Origin: Peptococcaceae bacterium BICA1-8
GTDB taxonomy: Bacteria > Bacillota > Peptococcia > Peptococcales > BICA1-8
NCBI GenBank assembly: GCA_000802045.1
Contig: JUEF01000135.1
Span: 8,287 to 72,286 of the forward strand
DNA: 64,000 nucleotides
Direction: 5' to 3'
Shown here: positions 2,521-37,517 of the stretch, in pieces
Layout of the letters: the number at the start of each line of letters is the position of its first letter
Numbering within the stretch: position 1 is the first letter of the stretch
Notes under the pieces: model-generated
What the model was told of the DNA's origin: nothing
Database searches by the model: none
Seen by the model: the letters and a program-made list of their open reading frames with translations, nothing else
Translations under genes and position numbers: made by a program

Positions 2521-4695
2521 ATGAGTTGTATTTTGACTGCAGAACATGTTCACAAAATAAAAGCAGCCCGTAAAGTTCTCAAAGAGTTTAAATACGAGCC
2601 GGCTAAGCTTGAAAAAGGTTATGCCAACAAATCCTTATATATCAATATTAGTAATAACTCAATAGTATCCAAAGATGTTACAGAAAAAATGAAGGATGTC
2701 TTTATCGGTGGTAAAGGTTTTGGTTTATGGTATCTATGGAATGCAGTTAACCCTCTAACCAAATGGAATGACCCCGAAAATGAAATTGTTATTTCACCGG
2801 GTCCTATCGCTGGTATTACCCAATATCCTGGTGCGGGGAAATCTTTGGTTGTCAGTATATCACCTACCACGGGCTCCGTGGTGGACAGTAATGTAGGCGG
2901 TCATTTTGGACCATTTTTAAAGTTTTCCGGCTGGGATGCTTTAGAAATTCAAGGTAAGGCTGATCGGGAAGTGATAATTTTTATTGACGGAAACAAAGGA
3001 ACTATTTCAATAGAAGAGGCACCTCTTGAATCCGTTGACACCCACTTAATTATTGAAGAATTGACAGAAATGTATGCTGAATCAGATGAGGATAAGAGAA
3101 ATATTTCTGTAGTATCTTCCGGTACTGCTGCTCAAAATTCTTATATTGGTTTGCTTAATTTCAGTTTTTACGATAAAAGGAGAAAGTCTCCCAGGGTAAA
3201 ACAGGCAGGCCGGGGGGGTATTGGAACTGTATTCAGAGACAAGAAAATTAAAGCCATCGTTGTCAAATTCAATGGTGTTAAGGGTGATTTGAACAACCCC
3301 GTAGACCTTAAAAAAATTCAAGAACTGGGAATTAAACTTCATAAAGAAATCCATGATTTTGATGCTATCCAGACCCAAAAGCGAGAAGTAGGTACTGCCA
3401 ATCTGGTGGAGATAATGAATGATTATGACCTGCTGCCGGTTAATAATTTTAAATACGGCAATCATCCTGAGACTTGGAAAATAGATTCTAAGCAGATTAA
3501 GAAAAAAGTAACACAAAATATGCCCGACGGCTGCTGGTACGGTTGTTCCATGGCCTGTGCCAAGGCGGTAGACGGCTTTATACTAAAAACAGGTCCTTAT
3601 AAAGGTCAAAAGGTCTTAATTGACGGACCGGAATATGAGACTGTCGCAGCAGTAGGCAGTAACTTGGGTATCTTTAACTTGGATCATGTTTTAGAGTGCA
3701 ACTTCTATTGTGATACTTATGGGGTTGATACCATTTCTCTAGGTACTACCACAGCCTTCTTGATGGAGTGCTATGAAAGCAATATTCTCAATAAAGAAAT
3801 TACCGGAGGCTTAGAGTTGACCTTTGGCAATAAGGACGCTGCCATGGAACTTCTCCATCAAATGTCTCGAGGTGAAAGCTTTGGTAAGATTGCTGGTCTA
3901 GGTGTTAGAAAAATTAAAGAGCTTCTGGTTAAGGAGTATGGTGCCGAGCCACAATTTTTAAATGATATTGGAATGGAAAATAAAGGTATGGAGTATTCCC
4001 AGTATATCTCTAAGGAATCTTTAGCCCAACAGGGTGGTTATGCCATGACCAACAAGGGACCCCAGCATGACGAGGCTTGGCTGATATTTATGGATATGGT
4101 TAATAACCAAATTCCTAGCTTTGAAGATAAGGCAGAAGCCCTGCATTATTTCCCAATGTTCCGTACTTGGTTCGGCCTAATGGGCTTATGTAAGCTGCCC
4201 TGGAATGATATAGAACCTGCTAATAATAGGCAGACAAGTGAACCTGCCAAGGTTCCTGAGCATGTACAGAACTATGTAGAGTTATTTAACAGTGTAACTG
4301 GAAAAACTATTAATAAACAAGAATTGATAGTCCAGTCTGAGCGGGTTTATAACTTCCAGCGGATTTTTAATATCAAAATGGGCTTTGGGCAGAAGGTTCA
4401 TGACAATCCGCCTTACCGCTCTGTTGGACCTGTAACAGTTGAGGAATATCTATCTCGTCAGGACCGTTATGACCAGCAGATGAAGGAATTAATAGGTGTA
4501 GCTCCTGACGGGAAAACTATTGAAGAGAAAATTAAGATTACCCGTAAATATAGAGAAGACCAATACGAAGAGTTAAGACAGACGGTTTATAAGAGAAGGG
4601 GCTGGACGGAAAACGGTATTCCAACTCTGGAGCACATTAGAAATCTGGGTATAGATTTCCCAGAGGTTCTAGAAGTTGTAAATAAACATCTCTAA
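2521..4695 (+). CDS. Aldehyde:ferredoxin oxidoreductase family (tungstopterin enzyme), long 724-aa variant
   Basis: AOR N-terminal domain pattern (GYANKSLYINIS...GGKGFG) and Cys cluster GCWYGCSMAC. Strong GGAGG RBS. Confidence 0.9.
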   Translation: MSCILTAEHVHKIKAARKVLKEFKYEPAKLEKGYANKSLYINISNNSIVSKDVTEKMKDVFIGGKGFGLWYLWNAVNPLTKWNDPENEIVISPGPIAGITQYPGAGKSLVVSISPTTGSVVDSNVGGHFGPFLKFSGWDALEIQGKADREVIIFIDGNKGTISIEEAPLESVDTHLIIEELTEMYAESDEDKRNISVVSSGTAAQNSYIGLLNFSFYDKRRKSPRVKQAGRGGIGTVFRDKKIKAIVVKFNGVKGDLNNPVDLKKIQELGIKLHKEIHDFDAIQTQKREVGTANLVEIMNDYDLLPVNNFKYGNHPETWKIDSKQIKKKVTQNMPDGCWYGCSMACAKAVDGFILKTGPYKGQKVLIDGPEYETVAAVGSNLGIFNLDHVLECNFYCDTYGVDTISLGTTTAFLMECYESNILNKEITGGLELTFGNKDAAMELLHQMSRGESFGKIAGLGVRKIKELLVKEYGAEPQFLNDIGMENKGMEYSQYISKESLAQQGGYAMTNKGPQHDEAWLIFMDMVNNQIPSFEDKAEALHYFPMFRTWFGLMGLCKLPWNDIEPANNRQTSEPAKVPEHVQNYVELFNSVTGKTINKQELIVQSERVYNFQRIFNIKMGFGQKVHDNPPYRSVGPVTVEEYLSRQDRYDQQMKELIGVAPDGKTIEEKIKITRKYREDQYEELRQTVYKRRGWTENGIPTLEHIRNLGIDFPEVLEVVNKHL

Positions 4696-14664: not shown

Positions 14665-16002
14665 TTATACTGTTAATACTGGAATTGGGAATATAACGCC
14701 ACTGAGTAGTAACCAAGCAACTAATAAGGTTAATACTAGGTTAAAGCTTTGACCTACAATGTATAACCAAAGTGGCTTACCGCCTTGGACAAGCTCAGCC
14801 ATTTCTTTAAAGTTGGACTCAAGGCCGATACAGACAAATGCCATACAGAAGCACCAGCCCTTCCAGCCACCTGTTAGACCTAATAGAGTTTTTGTTTCTT
14901 TAGCACCAATTGCCGGCTCAACAATAAAGGAGAAGATTAAAGACGCACCAATAAAACCAAGGATAAATTTGGGGAAACGGTGCCAGATTTCATCTGCTCC
15001 CACAGAAGGTCCGTCAACATCTTTCTCAACTTTTGTTGCAAAAAATACAGCAATGGCAAAAGCAATAACACCAATTAATACGTTTTGAATCATTTTAACA
15101 AGAGCAGCAACCTGACCCCCTAGTGGCCCTAATGCTTCACCGGCTAATACAACAGCACCTGTTGCGTCAACTGTACCACCGATCCAAGCACCGCCAACCA
15201 TAGGATCCATACCAATAGCTTTAATAAAGATAGGCATACCAACCATCATTAAAACTGTAAAAATTAAGGATAAGCCAATTGCAAAGGTTAAATCGTCCTT
15301 TTTAGCTTTGGAAGCGGCTGCTGCAGCGATAGCGGCTGAAACACCACAAACAGAAGTAGCAGTAGCGATAACTATTACCATAGGCTTACTGGTCATTTTA
15401 AGTATTTTTGTACCATAATGCCACATGAAAATAATTACGATAGGAGTAACGAACCAAGCAATACCTAAACCATAGATACCAAATTTAACTACATTGGAGA
15501 AAAGAACCTCAGCACCCATTAAAACCAGACCGGTTTTAATGTAGTATTCAGTTTTTACAGCAGGCTTTAACCAATCGGGAGTTTTTACAGTATTACTTAC
15601 TAAAAGACCTACTGCTAATGCCCAGAAAGCATACTCTACATATTTTTTCATAGTTGCTTGAGCACCTAATATATAGGCAATTGTAGCTAAGAGGAATATT
15701 ACAGGGAAGGCAATTGCAAATTTAGGTACGTTTTCGCCCATAAATACTAATCCAATTGAAAAAAGAGCAGTTAATACAACCATTGTGATTAGTAAACTAG
15801 CAATATCAAAAGAACCTAAGAAACTTGGAACCTTTTCGGTTCCCCATGTTGCGATCTTGGATGCATTAAACTTAAAAGCTCCTGTGGATTTACTGATAGC
15901 AGCTATTATAATTACGATAAGTCCAAGCCAAATTGCCCACCAGTCTTCTTTCTTTATTAAATCCGACCATTTAAACTTACTAGCTGTTACGACATCTGAC
16001 AT
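14665..16002 (-). CDS. YeiH/UPF0324 family membrane transporter (putative sulfate-exporter family), paralog 1
   Basis: Polytopic, 445 aa. Start moved to MSDVV (16002) by alignment with the paralogs and a GGAGGTG RBS 8 nt upstream. Confidence 0.9.
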   Translation of the reverse strand: MSDVVTASKFKWSDLIKKEDWWAIWLGLIVIIIAAISKSTGAFKFNASKIATWGTEKVPSFLGSFDIASLLITMVVLTALFSIGLVFMGENVPKFAIAFPVIFLLATIAYILGAQATMKKYVEYAFWALAVGLLVSNTVKTPDWLKPAVKTEYYIKTGLVLMGAEVLFSNVVKFGIYGLGIAWFVTPIVIIFMWHYGTKILKMTSKPMVIVIATATSVCGVSAAIAAAAASKAKKDDLTFAIGLSLIFTVLMMVGMPIFIKAIGMDPMVGGAWIGGTVDATGAVVLAGEALGPLGGQVAALVKMIQNVLIGVIAFAIAVFFATKVEKDVDGPSVGADEIWHRFPKFILGFIGASLIFSFIVEPAIGAKETKTLLGLTGGWKGWCFCMAFVCIGLESNFKEMAELVQGGKPLWLYIVGQSFNLVLTLLVAWLLLSGVIFPIPVLTV

Positions 16003-16383
16003 ATAAAGCACCTCCAAAATTTAAAATATTTTATAGGGTATTTGAACAATTAATTTTTTTAATCCCTCCTTATAATTTAGATAAATAACGCCGCGGTACA
16101 GTCATTGAGCATATTGATGCTGTCATACACACAAATTTAGGGTGTGTTTTAATTATAAGTTATCAAAAAAAATCTTTATATCATTCTTTAATACCATCTT
16201 TATTAAATGCATTAGGAAAATTTATTAATTTAGGAAAAAGCATTTGTTGAACTAAAAAATTAAGATAATGCAGGTAGATGAAATTAGACTAAATCTCATA
16301 ATAATAAAATAAAGAGGCCAGATGGCCGCTTTAAAAGGAAATAATTATTCAATTATCATTTTTCGTAGTAGTAGCATTTTAGT

Positions 16384-16424: not shown

Positions 16425-17768
16425 TTATACTGTTAATACTGGAATTGGGAAGATAACGCCGCTTAGTAATAACCAGGCTACTAATAAGGTTAATACTAAG
16501 TTAAAGCTTTGTCCCACGACATACAGCCAAAGTGGCTTACCACCTTGAACAAGCTCAGCCATGTCCTTGAAGTTAGACTCAAGACCAATTGATACGAAGG
16601 CCATGCAGAAGCACCATGCTTTCCAACTTCCAGATAAGGAAAGTATAGCTTTAGTATCCTTTGTACCTATTGAAGGCTCAACCAAGAAGGAGAATATTAT
16701 CGATCCTACAATAAAACCAAGAATAAATTTAGGGAAACGGTGCCAAATTTCATCGGCGCCCACAGAGGGTCCATCAACATCTTTTTCAACTTTTGTTGCA
16801 AAAAATACGGCAATGGCAAAAGCGATAACACCAATAAGAACGTTTTGAATCATTTTAACCAGAGCAGCAACTTGACCTGCTAATGGCCCTAAGGTTTCTC
16901 CGGCAAGTACAACTGCACCGGTAGCATCAATGGTTCCACCCATCCATGCTCCACCAAGCATCTCATTCATACCAATAGCTTTAATGAACATAGGCATGAA
17001 GACCATCATTAATACGGTGAAGATAAGGGTTAAACCGATGGCAAAGGTTAAGTCTTCTTTCTTTGCTTTAGAAGCAGCGGCAGCGGCAATAGCTGCAGAA
17101 ACCCCGCAAACCGAAGTAGCTGTCGCAATAACGATAACCATAGGTTTGCTGGTCATTTTCAAGATTTTGGTACCATAATACCACATAAAGACTATAACAA
17201 TTGGAGTAACAAACCAAGCAATACCTAGACCGTAGAAACCAAATTTAACAACATTGGAGAATAGTACTTCAGCACCCATCAGTACAAGACCTGTTTTAAT
17301 ATAGTATTCTGTTTTAACGGCCGGCTTTAGCCACTCGGGGGTTTTTACGGTATTACTTACCGCAAGTCCGACCACTAGTGCCCAGAAGGCGTACTCAATA
17401 TATTTTTTCATTGTGGCTTGAGCACCAAATACATAAGCAATTGTTGCTAAGATAAAAACAACAGGGAAGGCGATTAAGAAGCCTTTCACATCTTCTCCCA
17501 TAACTTTAAGACCGAGAGCAAATAATGCACCTAGTACAATTAGACTGAAAATTAATAAGCCTACTTGACCATTAAAAGCATCCATAATGCTAGGCGCCTT
17601 TTCATTTCCCCAAGTAGCTATTTTGGCGGCCTTAAAGGCGAAAGCACCTGTAAATTTACTTATTGCTGCTAAAGCTAATACAATGAATCCAAGCCAAATT
17701 GCCCACCAATCTTCTTTCTTTGTTAAATCAGACCATTTAAACTTACTAGCTGTTACGATATCTGACAT
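16425..17768 (-). CDS. YeiH/UPF0324 family membrane transporter, paralog 2
   Basis: 447 aa. Very similar to paralog 1, including an identical C-terminus LLSGVIFPIPVLTV. Confidence 0.9.
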   Translation of the reverse strand: MSDIVTASKFKWSDLTKKEDWWAIWLGFIVLALAAISKFTGAFAFKAAKIATWGNEKAPSIMDAFNGQVGLLIFSLIVLGALFALGLKVMGEDVKGFLIAFPVVFILATIAYVFGAQATMKKYIEYAFWALVVGLAVSNTVKTPEWLKPAVKTEYYIKTGLVLMGAEVLFSNVVKFGFYGLGIAWFVTPIVIVFMWYYGTKILKMTSKPMVIVIATATSVCGVSAAIAAAAASKAKKEDLTFAIGLTLIFTVLMMVFMPMFIKAIGMNEMLGGAWMGGTIDATGAVVLAGETLGPLAGQVAALVKMIQNVLIGVIAFAIAVFFATKVEKDVDGPSVGADEIWHRFPKFILGFIVGSIIFSFLVEPSIGTKDTKAILSLSGSWKAWCFCMAFVSIGLESNFKDMAELVQGGKPLWLYVVGQSFNLVLTLLVAWLLLSGVIFPIPVLTV

Positions 17769-18097
17769 TTAATACACCTCCATAAAATTTTAGATAAAGA
17801 CGGAAGAAAAACATAGTAAAAATTTTAGTCAGTCCTCACCACCCATATAAATGACTTATTTGATCGATAAATTATTACGATTATATTATATTAAAAATTG
17901 TTATACACTGATAATCCACCATTCTTACTATTTTTTGACAAAAAAGTAAGTCAGGTAATAAGGGGTTGCGCTATATATAAATTTAGTATAAAAACATAAA
18001 TAGGAAAATACTTGCGGCTACTTGTTTTATTCTTTTTTAGCAGGAAATTGGGTACTTTTAGTTGAAGTAAAGCATGAGGTGATATGAGGTGATAAAT

Positions 18098-18367
18098 ATG
18101 AAGCAGAGGCCAAAAATAAATAGTAAGTTAGGGAAAATGAGTTTATTGATAATTTTAATAATTATAGTAGTAATTGTTTATGCTATTGTAGTAGATCCTT
18201 GGAACATAAGTGAGGCGCCTTACGGCGCTGGGGATTATTATTATGATGAAGTAGAGGGTTATGATTTTAGCATAAGCATAGGTACTAAACATCCTATTAT
18301 ATTTTTCATTTTGTTTTTTGGCTGGGCTTTTGGCTGCTGGCATTTTTTAAAGTGGATGGAAAGATAA
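18098..18367 (+). CDS. Small two-TM membrane protein, family A/B (paralog of 14086-14382)
   Basis: ATG at 18098 lies 5 nt after GAGGTG. Shares motifs with the 14086-14382 product. Confidence 0.7.
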   Translation: MKQRPKINSKLGKMSLLIILIIIVVIVYAIVVDPWNISEAPYGAGDYYYDEVEGYDFSISIGTKHPIIFFILFFGWAFGCWHFLKWMER

Positions 18368-18499: not shown

Positions 18500-19843
18500 T
18501 TACATTGTTAAATTGGGTATTGGGAAGATAATTCCACTTAACAGCAACCAAGCCACTAAGAGAGTTAATACTAAGTTAAAGGTTTGACCAACAATGTATA
18601 ACATTAATGGCTTGCCGCCTTGTACAAGCTCAGCCATATCTTTAAAGTTAGATTCTAATCCTATACAGGTAAAGGCCAGACAGAAGCACCATCCTCTAAA
18701 GCCTTTAGCTAAGCCCGTAACGCCCTTTGTTCCAGCTGCACCCAAAACGGGTTCTACTATAAAGGAAAAAATGACTGAGGCTGCTATGAAACCAAGGATG
18801 AATTTTGGGAAGCGATGCCAGATTTCACTAGCTCCTACAGCAGGGCCGTCGACATCTTTGTCTACTTTAGTTGCAAAAAATACAGCTATGGCGAAGGCGA
18901 TAACGCCTATAAGTACGTTTTGAATCATTTTAACCATTGCAGCTACTTGACCAGCCAAAGGTCCCAATGCTTCTCCAGCAAGAACAACTGCACCGGTAGC
19001 ATCAATTGTTCCACCCATCCAGGCTCCACCTATCATTTCGTTCATGCCAATAGCTTTAATAATCATAGGCATGAAGATCATCATTATAACTGTAAAAATG
19101 AGGGTTAAACCAATGGCGAAAGTTAAATCTTCTTTTTTAGCTTTAGAAGCTGCAGCAGCGGCAATGGCTGCCGAAACACCACAAACAGAAGTCGCGGTAG
19201 CGATTACAATAATCATGGGTTTGCTAACCATTTTTAATACTCTAGTACCGTAATACCACATAAATATTACTACTATTGGAGTAACAAACCAGGCTATACC
19301 TAATCCGTAAATACCGAATTTTACAATGTTTGAAAAGAGAACTCCAGAACCCATTACAACCAAACCTGTTTTTATATAATACTCTGTCTTAACAGCTGGT
19401 TTTAGCCATTCAGGGGTCTTTATAGTATTGCTAACCAAAAGACCAATAGCCAGCGCCCAAAAAGCGTAGCCTAAATAGTTTTTTATGCCGGCATTAGCTG
19501 AAAAGAGATAGGCTAATGTTGAAAGAATGAATACTACCGGGAAACCAATGAGGAATTTCCCAACATCACCGCCCATTACTTTCAGACCGATAGCGAATAA
19601 AGCGCCTAGTATTATCATTGTTATTAATAATGATGGTAAAGTACCATTAAAGGAATCAAAAATACTAGGTGCTTTCTCTACACCCCAGGTATTAAGTTTA
19701 GCGGCTTTAAAGCTAAAAGTACCAGTAGTAGAACTAATAAATGAGAGAATAAGGATAATAAATCCAAGCCAAATTGCCCACCAATCTTCTTTATTGATAA
19801 GATCTTTCCATTCAAACTTACTAGTCGTTACGACATCAGACAT
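18500..19843 (-). CDS. YeiH/UPF0324 family membrane transporter, paralog 3 (most diverged)
   Basis: 447 aa, collinear with paralogs 1 and 2. AGGAGGTG RBS. Confidence 0.9.
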   Translation of the reverse strand: MSDVVTTSKFEWKDLINKEDWWAIWLGFIILILSFISSTTGTFSFKAAKLNTWGVEKAPSIFDSFNGTLPSLLITMIILGALFAIGLKVMGGDVGKFLIGFPVVFILSTLAYLFSANAGIKNYLGYAFWALAIGLLVSNTIKTPEWLKPAVKTEYYIKTGLVVMGSGVLFSNIVKFGIYGLGIAWFVTPIVVIFMWYYGTRVLKMVSKPMIIVIATATSVCGVSAAIAAAAASKAKKEDLTFAIGLTLIFTVIMMIFMPMIIKAIGMNEMIGGAWMGGTIDATGAVVLAGEALGPLAGQVAAMVKMIQNVLIGVIAFAIAVFFATKVDKDVDGPAVGASEIWHRFPKFILGFIAASVIFSFIVEPVLGAAGTKGVTGLAKGFRGWCFCLAFTCIGLESNFKDMAELVQGGKPLMLYIVGQTFNLVLTLLVAWLLLSGIIFPIPNLTM

Positions 19844-20330
19844 TTAAATACACCTCCTGAAAATTTGAGAAGCTTAATTGAATTAATCTAAAGAACCAGA
19901 CCCTCCTTTCGTTATGTAAAAATAATTACAAACAAGAGAACATTGATTAAAGACAAATAAAAAATACTTATAAATTAATTTAGCTATAACTAATTATAAG
20001 TATAAATTATATTTAATAAAACCCCTCGATTTTACTAGAACTGTAAATTAACTAAAAATAATGACGGAAATTATTTAAAATAATTACTGTTTTGAACTTA
20101 TTGGTATAAAATACTGGTTAATAAAGGGAATGAAAAGGTGCATGTTAAAATTAATTTTAAATATAGAGTAAAGAAGTAAACGTTATATAATATAAAATTA
20201 TTAATAATATAAAAAATTCTTATATATATACTTTTGATAGTTATGTAGGTTTTCGAAATCCTTGTGTAGAATAGTACAAATTAACTATGAAAATACATAG
20301 TACTTCCTACCTAATTGGAGTTGATTTGAT

Positions 20331-21662
20331 GTGAAAAATAATTTAGAAGACTATTATGTGAATATCAAATGGATGGCTTTTGTTATTCCAGTCCTATGGG
20401 TAGGCATTTATGAAGTGTTACGGTTTCAAATTCTAGGCAATATATTTACGCCAATCATTAATAGTGTCATATTAATATGTTCAGTTGGTTTTTTCGGACT
20501 TATTTTTTCGGCATATTTGTTTAGAAAGATTAGGACTATTCATAATTCACTTTTTTTAGAACAGCAAAAACTGAAAACTATCTTTCATCATACATCTGAC
20601 GGAATTATCGTTTTAGGAGAGAATTGTCAGATCCTTGATATCAACCCAGCCGTAGAAAAATTAACAGGGTGGAAAGCTAAAGAGGTAATTAAGAAAATTA
20701 CTTGTGAAGAAATGAACCGGTGTTTAAAGAGTACAGAGGCCTGTTGGAATTCTCAAAATCCCGAAGGCTGCATGAATGTAGACTGTGGGCATAGGGAGTG
20801 CTGGGGTAAGACTTGCCTGGAAAAACAAATTTCAGTTCCCCATGTAGAGATGTGTCTTGTTTGTAAAAATGGTAAGAAAATTAAGGTTGCCGCCAGTTAT
20901 TCTTACATACCTGCTGTAGGCGAGGAAAAGCCGTTGGTAAAGCTTGTTCTAAGAGATATCTCTGAAAAAAAAGAATTTGAAAAGGCTATTCAAAATTATG
21001 CTACTTTAGAGGAAAGATACAGACTAGCCAGAGAAATGCATGATGGATTAGCGCAAGCTTTAGTTTATTTAAATATTAAGGCTTATAATATTCAAAAGAA
21101 TTTAGAAAAGCATGGTAACCATGATTCTATTATTAATGACCTAGTTGAAATAAGGCAGGTTACCCAGGAGGCTGTTAATGAAGTCCGTCAGAATATTTTT
21201 GATTTAAAAACACCTCCTAGAGATGAAACTAGTTGTTTTAGGGTATGGATTGAGGATTATCTAAAAAACTTTGGTTTTATAAATCATTTAGATACTGAGT
21301 TTTTCTGTAATTGTCAGGCAGCACTTATATTACCTACTGATGTCAAAGTTCAATTAATTAGGATTATTCAGGAGGCTTTAACTAATATCAGAAAGCATGC
21401 TCGAGCTACAAAAATAAATATCTTTTTAACAAAGAATGAGAAGAAATTAATTATTAAAATTACTGATAATGGAAAAGGTATTGATTTAACTACTCTAAAT
21501 ATGGACACAAAGGAACATTTCGGATTAACTATAATGAAGGAAAGAGCTCAAATTATCGGAGGAGATATAAAAATTATTCCAGGTGAAGCCCGAGGAACTC
21601 TTGTAGAATTGACTTTGCCATTGATTAATGGATATGAAAGAAATAATAGGATAGCAAATTAG
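20331..21662 (+). CDS. Membrane sensor histidine kinase, HisKA_3/NarL-partner type, with a PAS-like domain carrying a nine-Cys insert
   Basis: Two N-terminal TM helices, H-box REMHDGLAQAL, and HATPase motifs (DNGKGI, GLTIMKERA). Cys-rich segment encoded at 20703-20864. GTG start. Confidence 0.85.
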   Translation: MKNNLEDYYVNIKWMAFVIPVLWVGIYEVLRFQILGNIFTPIINSVILICSVGFFGLIFSAYLFRKIRTIHNSLFLEQQKLKTIFHHTSDGIIVLGENCQILDINPAVEKLTGWKAKEVIKKITCEEMNRCLKSTEACWNSQNPEGCMNVDCGHRECWGKTCLEKQISVPHVEMCLVCKNGKKIKVAASYSYIPAVGEEKPLVKLVLRDISEKKEFEKAIQNYATLEERYRLAREMHDGLAQALVYLNIKAYNIQKNLEKHGNHDSIINDLVEIRQVTQEAVNEVRQNIFDLKTPPRDETSCFRVWIEDYLKNFGFINHLDTEFFCNCQAALILPTDVKVQLIRIIQEALTNIRKHARATKINIFLTKNEKKLIIKITDNGKGIDLTTLNMDTKEHFGLTIMKERAQIIGGDIKIIPGEARGTLVELTLPLINGYERNNRIAN

Positions 21663-21693: not shown

Positions 21694-22347
21694 ATGTTAA
21701 AGTTTAAAGTACTTTTAGTCGATGACCACGCTTTATTCCGTAAAGGGATGGCCAGTTTATTAAATGAACTTAAGGAACTAGAAATAATTGGCGAAGCAAG
21801 TAATGGTAAAGAAGGGGTTGAGAAAGCTAGAGAACTCAAGCCAGATATTATTATCATGGATGTGGAAATGCCTGAGATGACAGGAGTAGAGGCAGTAAAA
21901 GTTATTAAAGAGGAACTTCCACAGTGTAAAGTAGTTATGCTAACAATATCTGAGGATGATGACAATTTATTTAAATCAATTAAAAATGGAGCTCAAGGGT
22001 ATTTATTAAAGAGTATGGACCCTGATGATTTAATTAGACAAATAAAAGATTTGTTAAAGGGTGAGGCTGCTTTATCAAAGACGATAGCTAGTAAAATTTT
22101 AAAAGAATTTGCAAACCTTTCTAAAAAGCAAAAGGAAGTAGATTATCATAAATTTAATCTGACTGAAAGAGAGGGAGAGGTTTTAATTCAGGTAGCTCAG
22201 GGAATTACTAATAAGGAGATTGCTCTTGAACTGGCGATTACTGAGAATACAGTTAAGAATCACCTCTGCAATATCATGGAAAAACTCCACCTCCAGAATC
22301 GTGTCCAGTTAGCGACTTTTGCCTGGCGGGAAGGGTTTGTTGAATAA
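21694..22347 (+). CDS. NarL/LuxR-family response regulator
   Basis: Receiver domain (VLLVDDH...DIIIMDVEMPEMTG) plus a LuxR-type HTH (LTEREGEVLIQVAQGITNKEIA). Confidence 0.9.
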   Translation: MLKFKVLLVDDHALFRKGMASLLNELKELEIIGEASNGKEGVEKARELKPDIIIMDVEMPEMTGVEAVKVIKEELPQCKVVMLTISEDDDNLFKSIKNGAQGYLLKSMDPDDLIRQIKDLLKGEAALSKTIASKILKEFANLSKKQKEVDYHKFNLTEREGEVLIQVAQGITNKEIALELAITENTVKNHLCNIMEKLHLQNRVQLATFAWREGFVE

Positions 22348-22369: not shown

Positions 22370-22412
22370 AAGATGATACTATTCTTAATTAAGAAAGTAT
22401 CATCTTTGTTTT
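22370..22412 (+). terminator. Intrinsic terminator
   Basis: AAGATGATACTATTCTT-AATT-AAGAAAGTATCATCTT followed by TGTTTT. Confidence 0.8.
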
Positions 22413-22526: not shown

Positions 22527-23399
22527 ATGGAATTTCCTCAATGGGATATTCTAATTATCGGTTGTGGGCCCGCTGGGCTTTCAGCGGCGGTAAATGCGAC
22601 AATTCGTAACAAAAAGGCAATAGTATATGGCGGAGAGTTTTGCAGTCCCAAGCTTCATAAAGCTCCACATGTCAATAACTATTTAGGTTTCTGGGATGTA
22701 TCAGGAGAAGAATTGCGGAAAAAATATCTCAATCATGTTCAACAGTTAGATATAAAAATGGAATGTCATAAAATTGATAATATTTACCCTGCCGGGAAAT
22801 CTTTTAATGTTGTCAGTAAGGGCAATATGATTATGTGTAATGCAATAATAATTGCAGTAGGCTTGCAAAATCCTAAATACCTGCCAGGAGAAGAGGAACT
22901 GTTGGGCAAGGGTGTGGGTTATTGTGCTACCTGTGATGGCCCTTTGTATAAAGGGAAAAAGGTTGCAGTAATTGGTTATAACACAGAGGCAGAGGAAGAG
23001 GTTAACTATTTGGCCGGGTTAGCTAGCCAAGTTATATATCTTCCGTTGTATCAAGGGCTAGGAAGTATCGACAGTAGAGTTCGAATTTTAAATGAAAGAC
23101 CCAAGGCTCTATTAGGTACAGATAGATTACAAGCACTAGAAACGGAAGGGGAAACCCTAGAACTAGATGGATTATTTATTATTCGGGATAGTGTTCCTCC
23201 AGCTCAGCTTTTGCCTGGCTTGGAGCTTGAGGAAAACGCAATAGTAGTAAATAGAAAAATGTCTACAAATATAACCGGTGTATTTGCTGCCGGTGACTGC
23301 ACCGGTGCCCCTTATCAGCTGGCCAAAGCAGTAGGTGAAGGAGCAGTTGCAGGACTAAGTGCTGTGAGTTATTTGGAAGAAATGAATAAGGGAAAGTAG
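22527..23399 (+). CDS. Thioredoxin-reductase-like flavoprotein with a CATC redox motif but no recognisable NADPH-binding motifs
   Basis: IIGCGPAGLSAA FAD fingerprint and a CATCDG active site. The position of GGGxSA reads GYNTEA, and no HRRxxxR motif follows. Confidence 0.8.
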   Translation: MEFPQWDILIIGCGPAGLSAAVNATIRNKKAIVYGGEFCSPKLHKAPHVNNYLGFWDVSGEELRKKYLNHVQQLDIKMECHKIDNIYPAGKSFNVVSKGNMIMCNAIIIAVGLQNPKYLPGEEELLGKGVGYCATCDGPLYKGKKVAVIGYNTEAEEEVNYLAGLASQVIYLPLYQGLGSIDSRVRILNERPKALLGTDRLQALETEGETLELDGLFIIRDSVPPAQLLPGLELEENAIVVNRKMSTNITGVFAAGDCTGAPYQLAKAVGEGAVAGLSAVSYLEEMNKGK

Positions 23400-35072: not shown

Positions 35073-37517
35073 TTGCCGAAAATTGCAGCGGTTTGCGTTA
35101 ACATTACCACCAAAATAGACACTAAAGTATTTCATTATAATGTTCCTCCTTCTATGGAAGAAGTATTGCAGGTTGGCTGTCGTGTTCAAGTTCCTTTGGG
35201 ATTCCAGCTATGTGATGGTTTTGTGGTAGATTTTCCTAATTCTAGTGAAACAATGAATTTGAAAGAAATTAAAGATATTATTGATAAAGAACCGGTGATT
35301 TCCCAGGAAATGGTAGAATTAGCCCTTTGGGTTAGCAATTATTATCTTTCACCTTTACATAAAATATTAGAATACATTTTACCGCCTTATGCCAGAGTCC
35401 AAAAGGAAAAGTGGGTAAAGCTTGAAGATGCTTGCTCGTTAGGAGAAATAACCCAAACTTTAGCTCTATTAGATTCTTTGATAAAAGATATTATTGAGGC
35501 TTTAGGTAAGGGGCCGCAAAAAATTGATAAACTAATAAAAAGGTTTGGTTCAAACTGTAATAGTGCACTAGAAGATTTACAGTCTAGAGGAGTAGTAATT
35601 ATTTTCTGGCAGTTTATTCCTCTGGGTAAAGAAAAAATAATCACTTTTTATAGAGCTAAAGTCATCATAGAAGAAGAAATAACTAATCAATTTAAAAGAG
35701 CCCCTAAGCAAATGGAAGTTCTACAATACCTTATAAGAAATGGCCCGCAATCTAAAGCTCAGCTTACTAATATTTTAGGGAAAAATATTTATATCCTGAA
35801 TACTCTAGTCAATAAAGGAATAATTGAGAAGTACGAGTTTCGGGAGCAACGACTACCAGAATTGCATGAAGAGTTTGCTAATAACGTGGTCTTAGAGTTG
35901 AATAATTATCAAAAAGAGGCAATAAAGAGAATAATTGAAGCCTTAGATGCTAAAATCCATACAACCTTTTTAATACATGGCATAACAGGTAGTGGAAAAA
36001 CTGAGGTATATCTTACAAGTATTAAAGCTGCTATCATGAGGGGGCAGGGAGCCATACTGTTGGTTCCGGAAATAGCTTTGACTCCTCAAATAATTGGCCG
36101 CTTCAAAAGTATATTAGGAGATAAAGTGGTTGTGCTCCATAGCAACCTATCCCAAGGGGAAAGATTGGATGCTTGGGAGAGTCTGCGGGTAGGACAGGCT
36201 AAGGTTATTATTGGAGTACGAAGTGCAATTTTTGCTCCTGTACAAAGCTTGGGGTTGATCATAATTGATGAAGAACATGAAACAACATATAAACAAAGTG
36301 AGCCTGAACCTCGTTATCATGCCAGGGAAGTTGCTCTAAAAAGGGCACAATTGACAAATGCTGTTTTAGTTTTAGGGAGTGCTACCCCCTCAATAGAAAG
36401 TTATTTTTCTGCCCAAAAGGGTGATTATGACTTAATAGAAATGCCAGAAAGAGTTACCAAACATTCATTGCCAGATGTTAAGGTTGTTGACCTCAGAGAA
36501 GAATTTAAATTAGGAAATAAAAGTATTTTCAGTACGGCTCTTTCCGAGGCCATAACGGAAGCATTAAATAAATATGAACAAATAATTCTTTTCTTAAATC
36601 GACGAGGCTTTTCAACTTTTGTTTTATGTAGAGAATGCGGCAGTCCTCTAAAGTGTCGGAATTGTTCTATTTCTTTAACATATCATGCAGCTACTCTGGA
36701 AATGAAGTGCCATTATTGTAGTTATAAGACTAGAGTACCCCCACGTTGTCCAAATTGTGGCAGTTCTTTTATTCGTTATTTTGGTACGGGTACACAGCAG
36801 GTAGAACAGGAAATAAAGTCAATTTGGCCTCATGCTAGGGTCACACGTATGGACGTTGATACAACTGGTAATAAAAACGCCCATCAGAATTTACTAGCTC
36901 CATTTAAAAAAGGAGAATCAAATATTCTAGTAGGTACTCAAATGATCACTAAGGGCTTAGATTTTCCTAACGTAACCTTGGTAGGTGTTATAGCTGCCGA
37001 TATTTCCTTAAATCTTCCTGACTACACCTCCAGTGAGCGTACCTTTCAGCTGCTAACCCAGGTTGCTGGTAGAGCTGGACGGGGGGCAAAAAAAGGGCAG
37101 GTTATTATTCAAACATATAGCCCTGACAATTACTCGATTGTAGCTGGTAAAAACCAGGATTTTTTAGGATTTTATCGGCAGGAACTGGCTGCTAGAAAGA
37201 TTATGGATTATCCACCCTTTAGCTATCTAATTAGGATATTAGTTACTGATTATCACGAAAAAACAGTGATTCTTTATCTAGAAGCTTTTACTGAGATCAT
37301 CAAAAAGGATTTTGTGGATAATGTGGAAATATTAGGTCCTGCTCAAGCCCCAATAGGCAAAATAAAAAACCGCTACCGCTGGCAGATTATTTTGAAGGGC
37401 ATAGATTTGGAGCTTTTGAAAAATGCAGCCCTAAGGGGATTGCATCAAACTCAAAAAGGAGAAACTAATAAAACTCTTAGAGTTATTCTTGATGTTGAAC
37501 CGCAAAGTATTCTATAA
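35073..37517 (+). CDS. priA: Primosomal replication restart helicase PriA
   Basis: Walker A GITGSGKTEV, DEEH box and Cys4 zinc-binding region (CRECGSPLKCRNC...CHYC...CPNCGS). TTG start after TAGGAGG. Confidence 0.9.
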   Translation: MPKIAAVCVNITTKIDTKVFHYNVPPSMEEVLQVGCRVQVPLGFQLCDGFVVDFPNSSETMNLKEIKDIIDKEPVISQEMVELALWVSNYYLSPLHKILEYILPPYARVQKEKWVKLEDACSLGEITQTLALLDSLIKDIIEALGKGPQKIDKLIKRFGSNCNSALEDLQSRGVVIIFWQFIPLGKEKIITFYRAKVIIEEEITNQFKRAPKQMEVLQYLIRNGPQSKAQLTNILGKNIYILNTLVNKGIIEKYEFREQRLPELHEEFANNVVLELNNYQKEAIKRIIEALDAKIHTTFLIHGITGSGKTEVYLTSIKAAIMRGQGAILLVPEIALTPQIIGRFKSILGDKVVVLHSNLSQGERLDAWESLRVGQAKVIIGVRSAIFAPVQSLGLIIIDEEHETTYKQSEPEPRYHAREVALKRAQLTNAVLVLGSATPSIESYFSAQKGDYDLIEMPERVTKHSLPDVKVVDLREEFKLGNKSIFSTALSEAITEALNKYEQIILFLNRRGFSTFVLCRECGSPLKCRNCSISLTYHAATLEMKCHYCSYKTRVPPRCPNCGSSFIRYFGTGTQQVEQEIKSIWPHARVTRMDVDTTGNKNAHQNLLAPFKKGESNILVGTQMITKGLDFPNVTLVGVIAADISLNLPDYTSSERTFQLLTQVAGRAGRGAKKGQVIIQTYSPDNYSIVAGKNQDFLGFYRQELAARKIMDYPPFSYLIRILVTDYHEKTVILYLEAFTEIIKKDFVDNVEILGPAQAPIGKIKNRYRWQIILKGIDLELLKNAALRGLHQTQKGETNKTLRVILDVEPQSIL

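Follow-up and report, generated by a model that had tools for sequence, protein, structure and literature searches.

The window, as the whole stretch of 64,000 nucleotides analysed here is called, contained a sensor histidine kinase gene at positions 20331-21662 of the plus strand, a 443-aa ORF with a GTG start. According to Pfam and the full-length AF2 model, a membrane hairpin of two helices comes first in its domain order, then a PAS domain on the cytoplasmic side, and finally HisKA_3 and HATPase_c. The hairpin covered residues ~3-65 (20337-20525, +), with Kyte-Doolittle peaks at ~14-32 and ~41-65, K/R residues after helix 2, AF2 helices at 3-38 and 41-87 and a very short outer loop (less than ~10 residues). 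Given these two hydrophobic segments and the AF2 helices, the kinase was considered membrane-anchored, and its PAS domain is cytoplasmic. The latter spanned residues ~78-212 (20562-20966, +; Pfam PAS, PAS_9 and PAS_8), the Pfam PAS match itself lying at residues 80-212. It was followed by the dimerisation/phosphoacceptor domain HisKA_3 (residues 228-295; 21012-21215, +), in which H237 was encoded at 21039-21041, and by the catalytic domain HATPase_c (residues 339-431; 21345-21623, +). A gene for the cognate response regulator (REC plus GerE/LuxR HTH, NarL type in Pfam and NCBIfam; 21694-22347, +) was located directly 3' of the kinase gene in this and every other locus examined. A sequence-only reading of the same DNA had described a membrane-anchored kinase of the NarL type, and the hairpin, the HisKA_3 and HATPase_c core and the adjacent REC plus GerE regulator agree with that description.

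The homologue search yielded about 25 full-length orthologues of the kinase, and the aligned set (n = 25, 44-100% identity) came entirely from uncultured Peptococcaceae-like Bacillota. H237, N352, D379, G381 and G383 were invariant in this alignment, as was the EMHDGLAQ stretch of HisKA_3. Both N-terminal hydrophobic helices were kept in all orthologues, with R31 of helix 1 invariant and E28 nearly so, and this conserved hairpin could be the true input site. It must be noted that the kinase family has few members, all of them from metagenomes.

The best NCBIfam matches to the HisKA_3/HATPase_c core were NarX/NarQ and LiaS-type kinases, which share that core. Identity with NarX/NarQ was rejected, as the scores (111 bits for NarQ with a cut-off of 553, and 92 for NarX with a cut-off of 578) came from the core only. 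In addition, neither a periplasmic P-box sensor nor a HAMP domain was found in the kinase from Pfam and the length of the outer loop. The LiaS model scored 78 bits (cut-off 450); the kinase resembles this type in its two transmembrane helices and minimal outer loop but, unlike the LiaS-type intramembrane-sensing kinases, carries a full cytoplasmic PAS sensor after the hairpin.

Upstream, on the minus strand, there were three yeiH paralogs in tandem, all assigned to PF03601: paralog 1 at 14665-16017, paralog 2 at 16425-17768 and paralog 3 (also TIGR00698) at 18500-19843. The last is divergent from the kinase gene, as the sequence-only reading had noted. This divergent yeiH was kept in 8 of the 11 lineages that carry the kinase-regulator pair, and genuine dsrA/dsrB/DsrK/DsrC were adjacent to the pair or within 10 kb of it in five of the 11. 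The family is thus linked not only to yeiH but also, beyond what the sequence-only reading had noted, to dissimilatory sulfite reductase operons, the linked dsr genes being dsrAB/dsrMK/dsrC. Lineage L052 had neither yeiH nor dsr nearby, and no nar, nir, sqr or pdo genes were found near the kinase in the loci examined. Since the rluD-pyrR-lysR ... NFACT neighbourhood recurs, some of the association with yeiH/dsr may have been inherited as synteny. Paralog 3 of yeiH is a likely regulatory target.

Downstream of the regulator gene, a thioredoxin-reductase-like flavoprotein was encoded at 22527-23399 (+; Pfam, with NCBIfam below the TrxB cut-off), in which the CATC motif was kept and the NADPH motif lost. 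A terminator-like hairpin (22370-22406) separates both genes, and the flavoprotein gene is probably a separate transcript from that of the regulator. It was present only in the window and in lineages L001/L002, L011, L012 and L052, and absent from L003, L007, L009, L014, L049 and L050. Its restriction to the close clade and its position behind the hairpin led us to reject it as a core component; it is possibly an accessory gene of this clade.

Phylogenetic footprinting over six loci delimited a conserved non-coding block upstream of the kinase (block B, 20247-20314, +), a candidate promoter/operator. It consisted of a near-palindrome, AGGTTTTCGAAATCCT, followed by GAATAGTACAAATTAACTA and, 26 nt beyond the first TAGTAC, by another copy of this word. 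Ten loci had the 19-mer of block B in front of the kinase, and its only two other matches in 268 kb were both upstream of dsr operons. Since an Rfam scan of 14-24 kb gave only sub-threshold noise, block B does not correspond to an RNA element already described. A second footprint, block A (19990-20038, -), was located in the promoter region of yeiH paralog 3 and read TAGTAAAAT..GGGGTTT..TATAAT on the minus strand. In 2.3 kb of DNA upstream of dsr, the words GTACTA/TAGTAC were counted 11 times versus 1.07 expected, these word enrichments having been noticed a posteriori and many sites being orthologous and not independent. The 7-mer ATAGTAC showed no enrichment window-wide. An AGGTTT-N4-AAACCT palindrome was also considered as operator and rejected, given its many background matches with two mismatches and no clear enrichment.

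A cysteine-rich stretch lies within the PAS domain of the kinase. The translation of 20703-20864 (+) is CEEMNRCLKSTEACWNSQNPEGCMNVDCGHRECWGKTCLEKQISVPHVEMCLVC, 54 residues with nine Cys (C125, C131, C138, C147, C152, C157, C162, C175, and C178) in the spacing x5-x6-x8-x4-x4-x4-x12-x2, exactly as the earlier reading had given it. Nine Cys in 54 residues corresponds to a binomial P of 6e-9 against a Cys background of 1.06%, calculated from window ORFs of at least 200 aa, and the sole comparably dense stretch in the window was a CxxC-rich zinc-finger-like segment at 36621-36782. The same reading had regarded the stretch as an insert, and several alignments bear this out. The 103 positions of the PAS_9 model were stretched over 124 kinase residues in Pfam, and therefore the PAS domain contains an insertion; a Microaerobacter kinase (P0032, 33% identical) left a gap over the whole Cys segment, and B. 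licheniformis NreB is ~23 residues shorter at this place.

Conservation among the 25 orthologues was concentrated on part of the cysteines. C125, C131, C147, C152, C157 and C175 were invariant, while C138 and H154 were each kept in 24 of 25, the third Cys of orthologue P0025 being displaced by four residues yet retained. On the other hand, C162 was variable (15/25) and C178 was present only in the two closest sequences. A lack of Cys conservation in orthologues, which the sequence-only reading had named as its refuting outcome, was hence not observed: seven of the nine Cys, plus one His, were kept down to 44% identity, and C162 and C178 were not. As these two are not conserved, the functional unit, judged by the alignment, is probably Cys7His (C125, C131, C138, C147, C152, H154, C157, and C175; 20703-20855, +) and not nine Cys. 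The 64 columns of the Cys segment included 12 invariant ones, six of them Cys, and neighbouring positions varied. With a density P of 6e-9 and six Cys invariant plus two ligand positions kept in 24/25 across 44-100% identity, it has a negligible probability that the insertion arose by chance, or as a low-complexity stretch private to one lineage, and plays no part in sensing; this reading is effectively refuted, in spite of the loss of C162 and C178 and of a family that is small and metagenome-only.

In silico searches for relatives of the segment did not show any match to Pfam when it was used in isolation (E up to 10), and the conserved core of the orthologue alignment did not contain any CxxC pair. 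A word-indexed search with the 64-residue Cys-segment profile returned a 77-aa fragment only, even the family members already known being missing from its output; no other domain architecture with the Cys module was found in it, which is a weak negative. The PAS-alignment profile, searched against the whole library, gave P0004 and P0025 as the only single-domain full matches amid many giant multi-PAS proteins. More distant single-domain Cys-rich relatives of the kinase may exist.

With respect to solved structures, the profile of the 25 PAS regions matched by far best the PAS domain of B. licheniformis NreB (9wex_A, E 1.1e-14), the next match having an E value of 3e-6, and hhalign aligned this family with NreB PAS over 120 columns with a probability of 98.5% (E 4e-15). 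The likeness to NreB that had been suggested thus gains in strength: from these profile alignments, the two PAS domains are homologous and not merely analogous. Used as a query, the B. licheniformis NreB PAS sequence returned six fragments only. All three NreB ligand Cys fell on or beside C125, C131 and C138/C157 of the kinase, although the hmmsearch and hhalign alignments differed on which 'CW' corresponds to C78 of NreB. Relative to 9wex, the hmmsearch alignment left residues 140-162 of the kinase as an extra module, NSQNPEGCMNVDCGHRECWGKTC (20748-20816, +), the hhalign gap being slightly displaced. These ~23 added residues contain the motif C-x4-C-G-H-x2-C-W and carry C147, C152, H154 and C157 together with the variable C162.

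The Cys motif of S. carnosus NreB is C-x2-C-x11-C-x2-C. The arrangement in the kinase, C-x5-C-x6-C-x8-C-x4-C-x-H-x2-C...C, is unlike the C-x2-C-x11-C of NreB, whether or not x2-C is appended to it, and the counterparts of the three NreB Cys are offset. As had been pointed out from the sequence, both number and spacing differ from NreB, and neither NreB motif was matched.

The AF2 model of the PAS domain (mean pLDDT 81.9) showed a canonical PAS fold, and Foldseek related it to the PAS domains of LOV, FixL and DosP, which bind cofactors (TM 0.6-0.7). The Cys loop with its extra module was modelled as coil with pLDDT 42-64 on an otherwise confident scaffold, and was placed, at this low confidence, on the cofactor side of the fold. 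Such low confidence is as expected for a loop that would need a cofactor to fold, but the shallowness of the alignment, with 25 sequences, may be explanation enough.

There are established examples of PAS sensors that bind Fe-S with three or four Cys. S. carnosus NreB is described as an O2-labile [4Fe-4S] PAS kinase, as cited in PMC13478379 and PMC8359166, and OrpR of Desulfovibrio vulgaris holds a redox-sensitive [4Fe-4S] cluster in a cytoplasmic PAS with three conserved Cys (PMC8359166). Compared by description, the S. carnosus NreB/NreC system resembles that of the window in domain order and regulator type and, so far as its cited description goes, offers the analogy of a respiratory reductase switched on together with its anion transporter. 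It differs in that NreB has four Cys, is cytoplasmic, has the nitrate receptor NreA as partner and controls nitrate/nitrite respiration. OrpR shares with the kinase a cytoplasmic Cys-bearing PAS, and its host is a sulfate reducer, but it is a sigma-54 enhancer-binding protein with C52, C61 and C65 whose regulon is the orp operons. B. licheniformis NreB binds a [2Fe-2S] cluster in its PAS through three Cys and is a sulfide sensor with a labile SH ligand (PMC13478379). Like the kinase, it consists of PAS, HisKA_3 and HATPase_c with an adjacent NarL/GerE regulator (PDB 9wex; PMC13478379, PMC9918477), and its ligand Cys are in the same segment, from the early helices to the G-beta strand; its control of sulfur-metabolism genes in response to sulfide recalls the sulfur gene context of the kinase. 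In contrast, this NreB is soluble, holds one [2Fe-2S] on three Cys (C63-x2-C66-x11-C78) and controls sqr-pdo in an aerobe, whereas the kinase has a membrane hairpin, Cys7His in another spacing, ~23 extra residues, a yeiH/dsr context and anaerobic hosts. The two NreB PAS domains are only 26.7% identical to each other. The nearest precedent is the three-Cys B. licheniformis NreB (PMC13478379), which goes beyond the four-Cys staphylococcal NreB of the earlier comparison.

In attention to the observed anatomy and conservation, the NreB PAS homology, the cytoplasmic location of the domain, the gene linkage and the common upstream words, we give about an even chance to the kinase being a membrane-tethered PAS sensor of the NreB type, with an iron-sulfur (or metal) centre and with sulfite handling under its control. 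The enlarged Cys loop would offer eight potential ligands, seven Cys and one His, on the cofactor-binding face and would ligate one or more iron-sulfur clusters. One site may correspond to that of the NreB cluster (C125 and C131 with C138 or C157), and the C-x4-C-G-H-x2-C-W module, together with C175 on the G-beta strand, could supply extra ligands or a second site. The cluster would respond to a signal from the cytoplasm, either a sulfur species (candidates are sulfide and sulfite) or a redox cue (redox potential/O2), through a change of ligand, oxidation state or integrity, which would be transmitted by the PAS-to-DHp helix to the autophosphorylation of His237. The phosphorylated NarL-type regulator would then act on its own operon and on the yeiH-type transporter genes divergent from it, with the dsrAB/dsrMK/dsrC operon as a further target in related lineages, which makes the pair a candidate regulator of sulfite respiration. 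A more elaborate version, somewhat unlikely in our estimation, would have two coupled centres (an NreB-like Fe-S centre plus a Cys3His site), direct sensing of cytoplasmic sulfite/sulfide and a master switch for dsrAB/dsrMK/dsrC and YeiH-type transport in Gram-positive sulfite/sulfate reducers.

It must be considered that Fe-S, Zn and thiol chemistry of such a Cys loop look alike at the level of sequence. The loop might form two structural Zn sites (Cys4 and Cys3His) that stabilise the insert, the signal being perceived elsewhere, by the membrane hairpin, by co-sensing with YeiH or by Zn occupancy itself as in WalK; we regard this as unlikely. The conserved ligands are exactly eight, seven Cys and one His, a number that two structural Zn sites would suit equally well, and WalK is a precedent for Zn on a cytoplasmic PAS. 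The hairpin, as conserved as the PAS (R31, E28) and with a tiny outer loop, resembles those of intramembrane-sensing kinases, the kinase adjoins a transporter gene or dsr except in L052, and the other Cys-dense stretch of the window is zinc-finger-like. Nevertheless, in the nearest homologue, NreB, this segment holds an Fe-S cluster, and the loop has neither the paired CxxC knuckles that characterise zinc ribbons nor any Pfam match, zinc-finger or other, from which it does not follow that zinc fails to bind. AF2 mostly folds zinc modules with confidence and the Cys loop was of low confidence, a weak point given the shallow alignment.

Distinctly unlikely, in our judgement, is a metal-free thiol switch in which disulfides, persulfide/polysulfide bridges or S-sulfonation by sulfite (sulfitolysis) would remodel the PAS and the thioredoxin-reductase-like flavoprotein would reset it. 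The Cys density and the sulfur-metabolism context fit such a switch, a CxxC flavoprotein of this family is encoded immediately 3' in the window, L001, L011, L012 and L052, and persulfide-sensing regulators that form Cys-Cys bridges, e.g., CstR/YrkD, are known. However, two or three Cys usually suffice for these switches as against seven conserved Cys and a His here, the flavoprotein gene is absent from most lineages and probably transcribed separately, and homology favours a cluster-binding PAS. Heme-c binding was rejected, given the lack of a CxxCH motif and the cytoplasmic location of the domain.

Regarding the transporter, YeiH confers sulfite stress resistance in Salmonella (PMC12880088) and sulfite resistance also in Bordetella (bioRxiv 10.64898/2026.04.22.720190). 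In Salmonella/E. coli, as at the kinase locus, a regulator gene is divergent from yeiH (PMC12880088); there it encodes YeiE, a sulfite-binding LysR protein, and here the two-component system occupies the divergent position. LysR genes were found near the kinase locus, but not divergent from yeiH.

In the literature searched, no account of the control of dsr genes in Gram-positive sulfate/sulfite reducers and their relatives was found. To our knowledge, Fe-S clusters were established as sensors of sulfur species only with the NreB structure of 2026. The PAS domain of the kinase offers about twice as many ligands as is usual, and gene order ties the kinase to dsr operons and YeiH transporters. 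If the loop binds zinc only, it would be a distinctive yet ordinary structural insertion. If it binds clusters, in line with the NreB-type reading, it would add to what is known of coordination chemistry in PAS sensors and give access (regulator, operator and inducer) to the sulfite respiration of Peptococcaceae from the subsurface, organisms of nuclear-waste host rock among them. The host lineages of the kinase were anaerobes carrying dsr genes.

The kinase ORF (window 20331-21662, + strand; 443 aa, GTG start) encodes a membrane-anchored sensor histidine kinase in which Pfam places a PAS domain at residues 80-212, HisKA_3 at 228-295 and HATPase_c at 339-431, and the next gene (21694-22347, +) encodes a NarL-type response regulator with REC and GerE domains. 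NCBIfam matches of the kinase to NarQ, NarX, LiaS and UhpB covered the kinase core alone and were far under the cut-offs. N-terminal to the PAS domain are two hydrophobic segments, at about residues 14-32 and 41-65, with positive residues after the second. In the full-length AlphaFold model, helices 3-38 and 41-87 form a hairpin continuing into the PAS N-cap, followed by the PAS core (88-210), a single long helix that bears H237 (211-260), a helix at 265-293 and the ATPase domain (303-430). The outer loop consists of just a few residues; therefore, the PAS domain and its Cys are cytoplasmic, and an extracytoplasmic sensor is absent. Since the catalytic residues H237, N352, D379, G381 and G383 are invariant among the orthologues, the kinase should be active. 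In addition, Arg R31 is invariant and Glu E28 near-invariant in the first membrane helix (window 20412-20423), and the DHp-to-ATPase linker contains the semi-conserved C302, C326 and C328 (23, 19 and 16 of 25 orthologues, respectively; codons at window 21234-21236 and 21306-21314).

Translation of window 20703-20864 (+) gave exactly the 54 residues quoted in the sequence-only reading, with nine Cys (C125, C131, C138, C147, C152, C157, C162, C175 and C178) in the spacing given there. Against a background of 1.06% Cys in the long ORFs of the window, such a density has a binomial P of 6e-9. The only other comparably Cys-dense stretch of the window, 36621-36782 (+; 8 Cys in 54 residues, in zinc-finger-like CxxC pairs, within the ORF 35073-37517, +), resembles the part of PriA-type helicases that binds zinc. 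Among 5.8 billion proteins searched, about 25 were full-length kinase orthologues (44-100% identity), all of metagenome or MAG origin and labelled Bacillota, Clostridia or Peptococcaceae; matches past these had the kinase core alone in common. C125, C131, C147, C152, C157 and C175 were present in 25/25 orthologues, and C138 in 24/25 (P0025, one of these related proteins, has a Cys 4 residues further on), so that the conservation holds for seven of the nine Cys, but not for C162 (15/25) or C178 (2/25). H154 was found in 24/25, G153 and W158 were invariant, and R155 and E156 occurred in at least 90%. Since Cys account for six of the 12 invariant columns across the 64-column segment, the functional unit of the loop, as judged from this alignment, is Cys7His, with eight potential ligands (C-x5-C-x6-C-W-x7-C-x4-C-G-H-x2-C-W ... 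E-M-C). Its C-x5-C-x6-C part presumably resembles the Rrf2 (IscR/NsrR) cluster motif, and we take C-x-H-x2-C to share the spacing of Rieske box I; several [2Fe-2S] sensors are typically ligated by 3Cys+1His. The family is narrow, being present in 4 of 185,579 GTDB species representatives ('Clostridiaceae bacterium BRH_c20a' from Opalinus Clay, locus L011, and three Peptococcaceae MAGs), and full single-domain matches fell into two clusters only among 1.84 billion 50%-identity representatives. The isolated Cys segment had no Pfam match, and a profile search with it turned up no other protein architecture.

By alignment and in the predicted models, the Cys stretch is inserted into the PAS fold on its cofactor side. 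The 103 PAS_9 model positions are stretched over 124 kinase residues, and in the Microaerobacter kinase P0032 (33% identical) the alignment gap spans the entire Cys segment. The PAS-only AlphaFold model is a canonical PAS domain (mean pLDDT 81.9), for which Foldseek retrieved the LOV, FixL and DosP PAS domains (TM 0.6-0.7); its sole coil of low confidence, at residues of about 130-157 (pLDDT 42-64), is the same in the full-length model. The segment lies after the early helices and before the helix preceding the G-beta strand, a PAS region that hosts FMN, heme or the NreB cluster in other PAS domains. The proposed kinship with NreB was borne out: the best solved match of the kinase PAS, both by sequence (E 3e-9) and by profile (E 1.1e-14; next match DosP, 3e-6), is PDB 9wex, which hhalign aligned with 98.5% probability over 120 columns. 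That structure is of the NreB PAS domain from B. licheniformis, which senses sulfide and in which Cys63, Cys66 and Cys78, together with a labile SH ligand, bind a [2Fe-2S] cluster (PMC13478379). The placement of the NreB Cys differs slightly between aligners: hmmsearch puts C78-Y79 on C138-W139 and C63/C66 near C125, leaving residues 140-162 (NSQNPEGCMNVDCGHRECWGKTC) as an extra module, and hhalign pairs C63 with C125, C66 with C131 and 'GEERCY' with 'GHRECW' (C157). By either, all three NreB ligands have counterparts, to which the kinase adds four conserved Cys and H154. Three or four Cys serve in other Fe-S PAS sensors, namely S. carnosus NreB, described in papers citing the original work as a four-Cys, O2-labile [4Fe-4S] sensor, and the three-Cys OrpR of Desulfovibrio (PMC8359166). 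The kinase resembles NreB in the homology of its PAS domain, in kinase class and in the type of regulator, and would work like it, but it departs from NreB, a soluble protein, in solubility, ligand motif and predicted regulon. For these reasons it is better regarded as a variant of the Fe-S-PAS/NreB kind than as NreB proper. The sequence-only reading is supported in part: anatomy, NreB kinship and Cys conservation stand, but not the relevance of all nine Cys; seven matter.

The reading with the best support, which we consider about an even call, is a sensor kinase of the NreB type in which the Cys7His loop of the cytoplasmic PAS domain ligates one or more Fe-S clusters. Sulfide, sulfite or redox/O2 would set the cluster state and this, in turn, would gate autophosphorylation; the regulator would then act on yeiH-type transporters and, in some lineages, also on dissimilatory sulfite reductase. 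Such logic parallels that of NreBC, by which staphylococci regulate nitrate/nitrite reductases and a nitrate transporter. Two structural Zn sites in the loop, with sensing via the conserved membrane hairpin or a transporter partner, seem rather unlikely, and it must be noted that the choice between Fe-S and Zn, like the identity of the signal, is beyond what sequence data can decide. Somewhat less probable still is a switch that relies on thiol, persulfide or sulfitolysis chemistry and no metal, and that the thioredoxin-reductase-like flavoprotein encoded downstream (window 22527-23399, +) might reset. This protein keeps a CATC redox pair, but its NADPH-binding GGGxxA motif is replaced by GYNTEA (score 191.7, TrxB cut-off 343); it looks like an NADPH-independent, perhaps ferredoxin-linked, TrxR relative. 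An insertion without function is refuted by the Cys conservation and can hardly be entertained. The kinase, which stays within a known sensor class, is a credible candidate, amenable to experiment, for an unusual PAS metal centre with multiple ligands.

Kinase and regulator genes were adjacent in every locus of the eleven lineages with readable flanks. A PF03601/YeiH gene was divergent from the kinase in 8/11 (the window, L001, L003, L009, L011, L012, L049 and L050), with one to three yeiH copies per locus. In L007 and L014 yeiH is absent, and the pair lies directly upstream of, and on the same strand as, ferredoxin-dsrA-dsrB-...-dsrM-dsrK-dsrC. In L003, L049 and L050 a dsrMK-(CoADR-rhodanese)-ferredoxin-dsrAB cluster is less than 10 kb from the yeiH/kinase unit; L052 has neither yeiH nor dsr nearby. 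In the L007 and L014 clusters, DsrA, DsrB and DsrK exceeded NCBIfam equivalog cut-offs and DsrC its subfamily cut-off, while DsrM was below its own. The yeiH/dsr association persists through several rearrangements; rluD-pyrR-lysR on one side and NFACT plus Ca-ATPase on the other are plain synteny. Salmonella needs YeiH to resist sulfite stress, and YeiE, the LysR regulator encoded divergently from it there, binds sulfite (PMC12880088); a Bordetella homologue is implicated in sulfite export (bioRxiv 10.64898/2026.04.22.720190). No paper on this kinase family, or on a two-component regulator beside Peptococcaceae dsr genes, was found in the literature, and the pair is a candidate for the missing sulfite-respiration regulator of Gram-positive anaerobes.

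Alignment of the yeiH-kinase spacer from six loci revealed two footprints amid otherwise 22% GC DNA: block A (19990-20038), within the promoter region of yeiH3, and block B (20247-20314), just 5' of the kinase, which holds GAATAGTACAAATTAACTA and has two copies of TAGTAC at a distance of 26 nt. The 19-mer of block B was upstream of the kinase in 10/10 loci with sequence there. Allowing up to four mismatches, 268 kb contained two further matches only, each 5' of a dsr operon: about 20 nt ahead of the start of the ferredoxin gene heading the L007 dsrAB operon, and in the L049 yeiH-dsrM spacer, where two TAGTAC words are also 26 nt apart. Over 2,276 nt of DNA 5' of dsr, GTACTA/TAGTAC was counted 11 times (1.07 expected). 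A related word, T[AG][GT][TA]CTAA[AT]TT, is found 5' of yeiH1 and yeiH2 (window 16281-16291 and 17980-17990, -), and this word (TGTACTAATTT) recurs 5' of dsrM in L003 (6206-6216), L049 (13572-13582) and L050 (5475-5485), within a strongly conserved element, CAATTTTACATAG..CTTGTACTAATTTACACTAAA. These patterns fit one common regulator of the kinase operon, yeiH and dsr; given their post hoc discovery and the orthology of many sites, we treat the regulon as inferred. No clear enrichment elsewhere was seen for the AGGTTT-N4-AAACCT palindrome of block B.

Other traits of these loci were also noted. The three tandem yeiH paralogs of the window (14665-16017, 16425-17768 and 18500-19843, -) encode about 447-450 aa each, of which some 100 N-terminal residues extend beyond the Pfam match, and have their own AT-rich upstream regions. 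A hydrophobic 92-aa ORF (18089-18367, +) lies between yeiH2 and yeiH3, and yeiH likewise has small unannotated ORFs beside it in L003, L049 and L050. In L001 (12043-12789) and L012 (11843-12586) a conserved ORF of 247-248 aa, with no Pfam or NCBIfam match and absent from the window and L011, separates the regulator from the TrxR-like gene. The dsr clusters of Peptococcaceae-like MAGs include a pyridine-nucleotide disulfide oxidoreductase plus rhodanese protein of about 560 aa (CoADR-RHD/persulfide-reductase-like), located between dsrK and ferredoxin-dsrAB in L003 (1857-3536) and L050 (1227-2897), directly after dsrK in L049 (16266-17305, running past the locus end) and after dsrC and a CbiA-like gene in L007 (19560-21248). 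Just 3' of the regulator gene, a perfect AT-rich hairpin (AAGATGATACT...AGTATCATCTT) followed by TGTTTTAT (window 22370-22406, +) is likely an intrinsic terminator missed by the GC-based scan. Upstream in the window, genes for an aldehyde:ferredoxin oxidoreductase (AFOR_N/AFOR_C; 2521-4695, +) and a DAO-family FAD oxidoreductase (710-1858, +) are consistent with a strictly anaerobic host.
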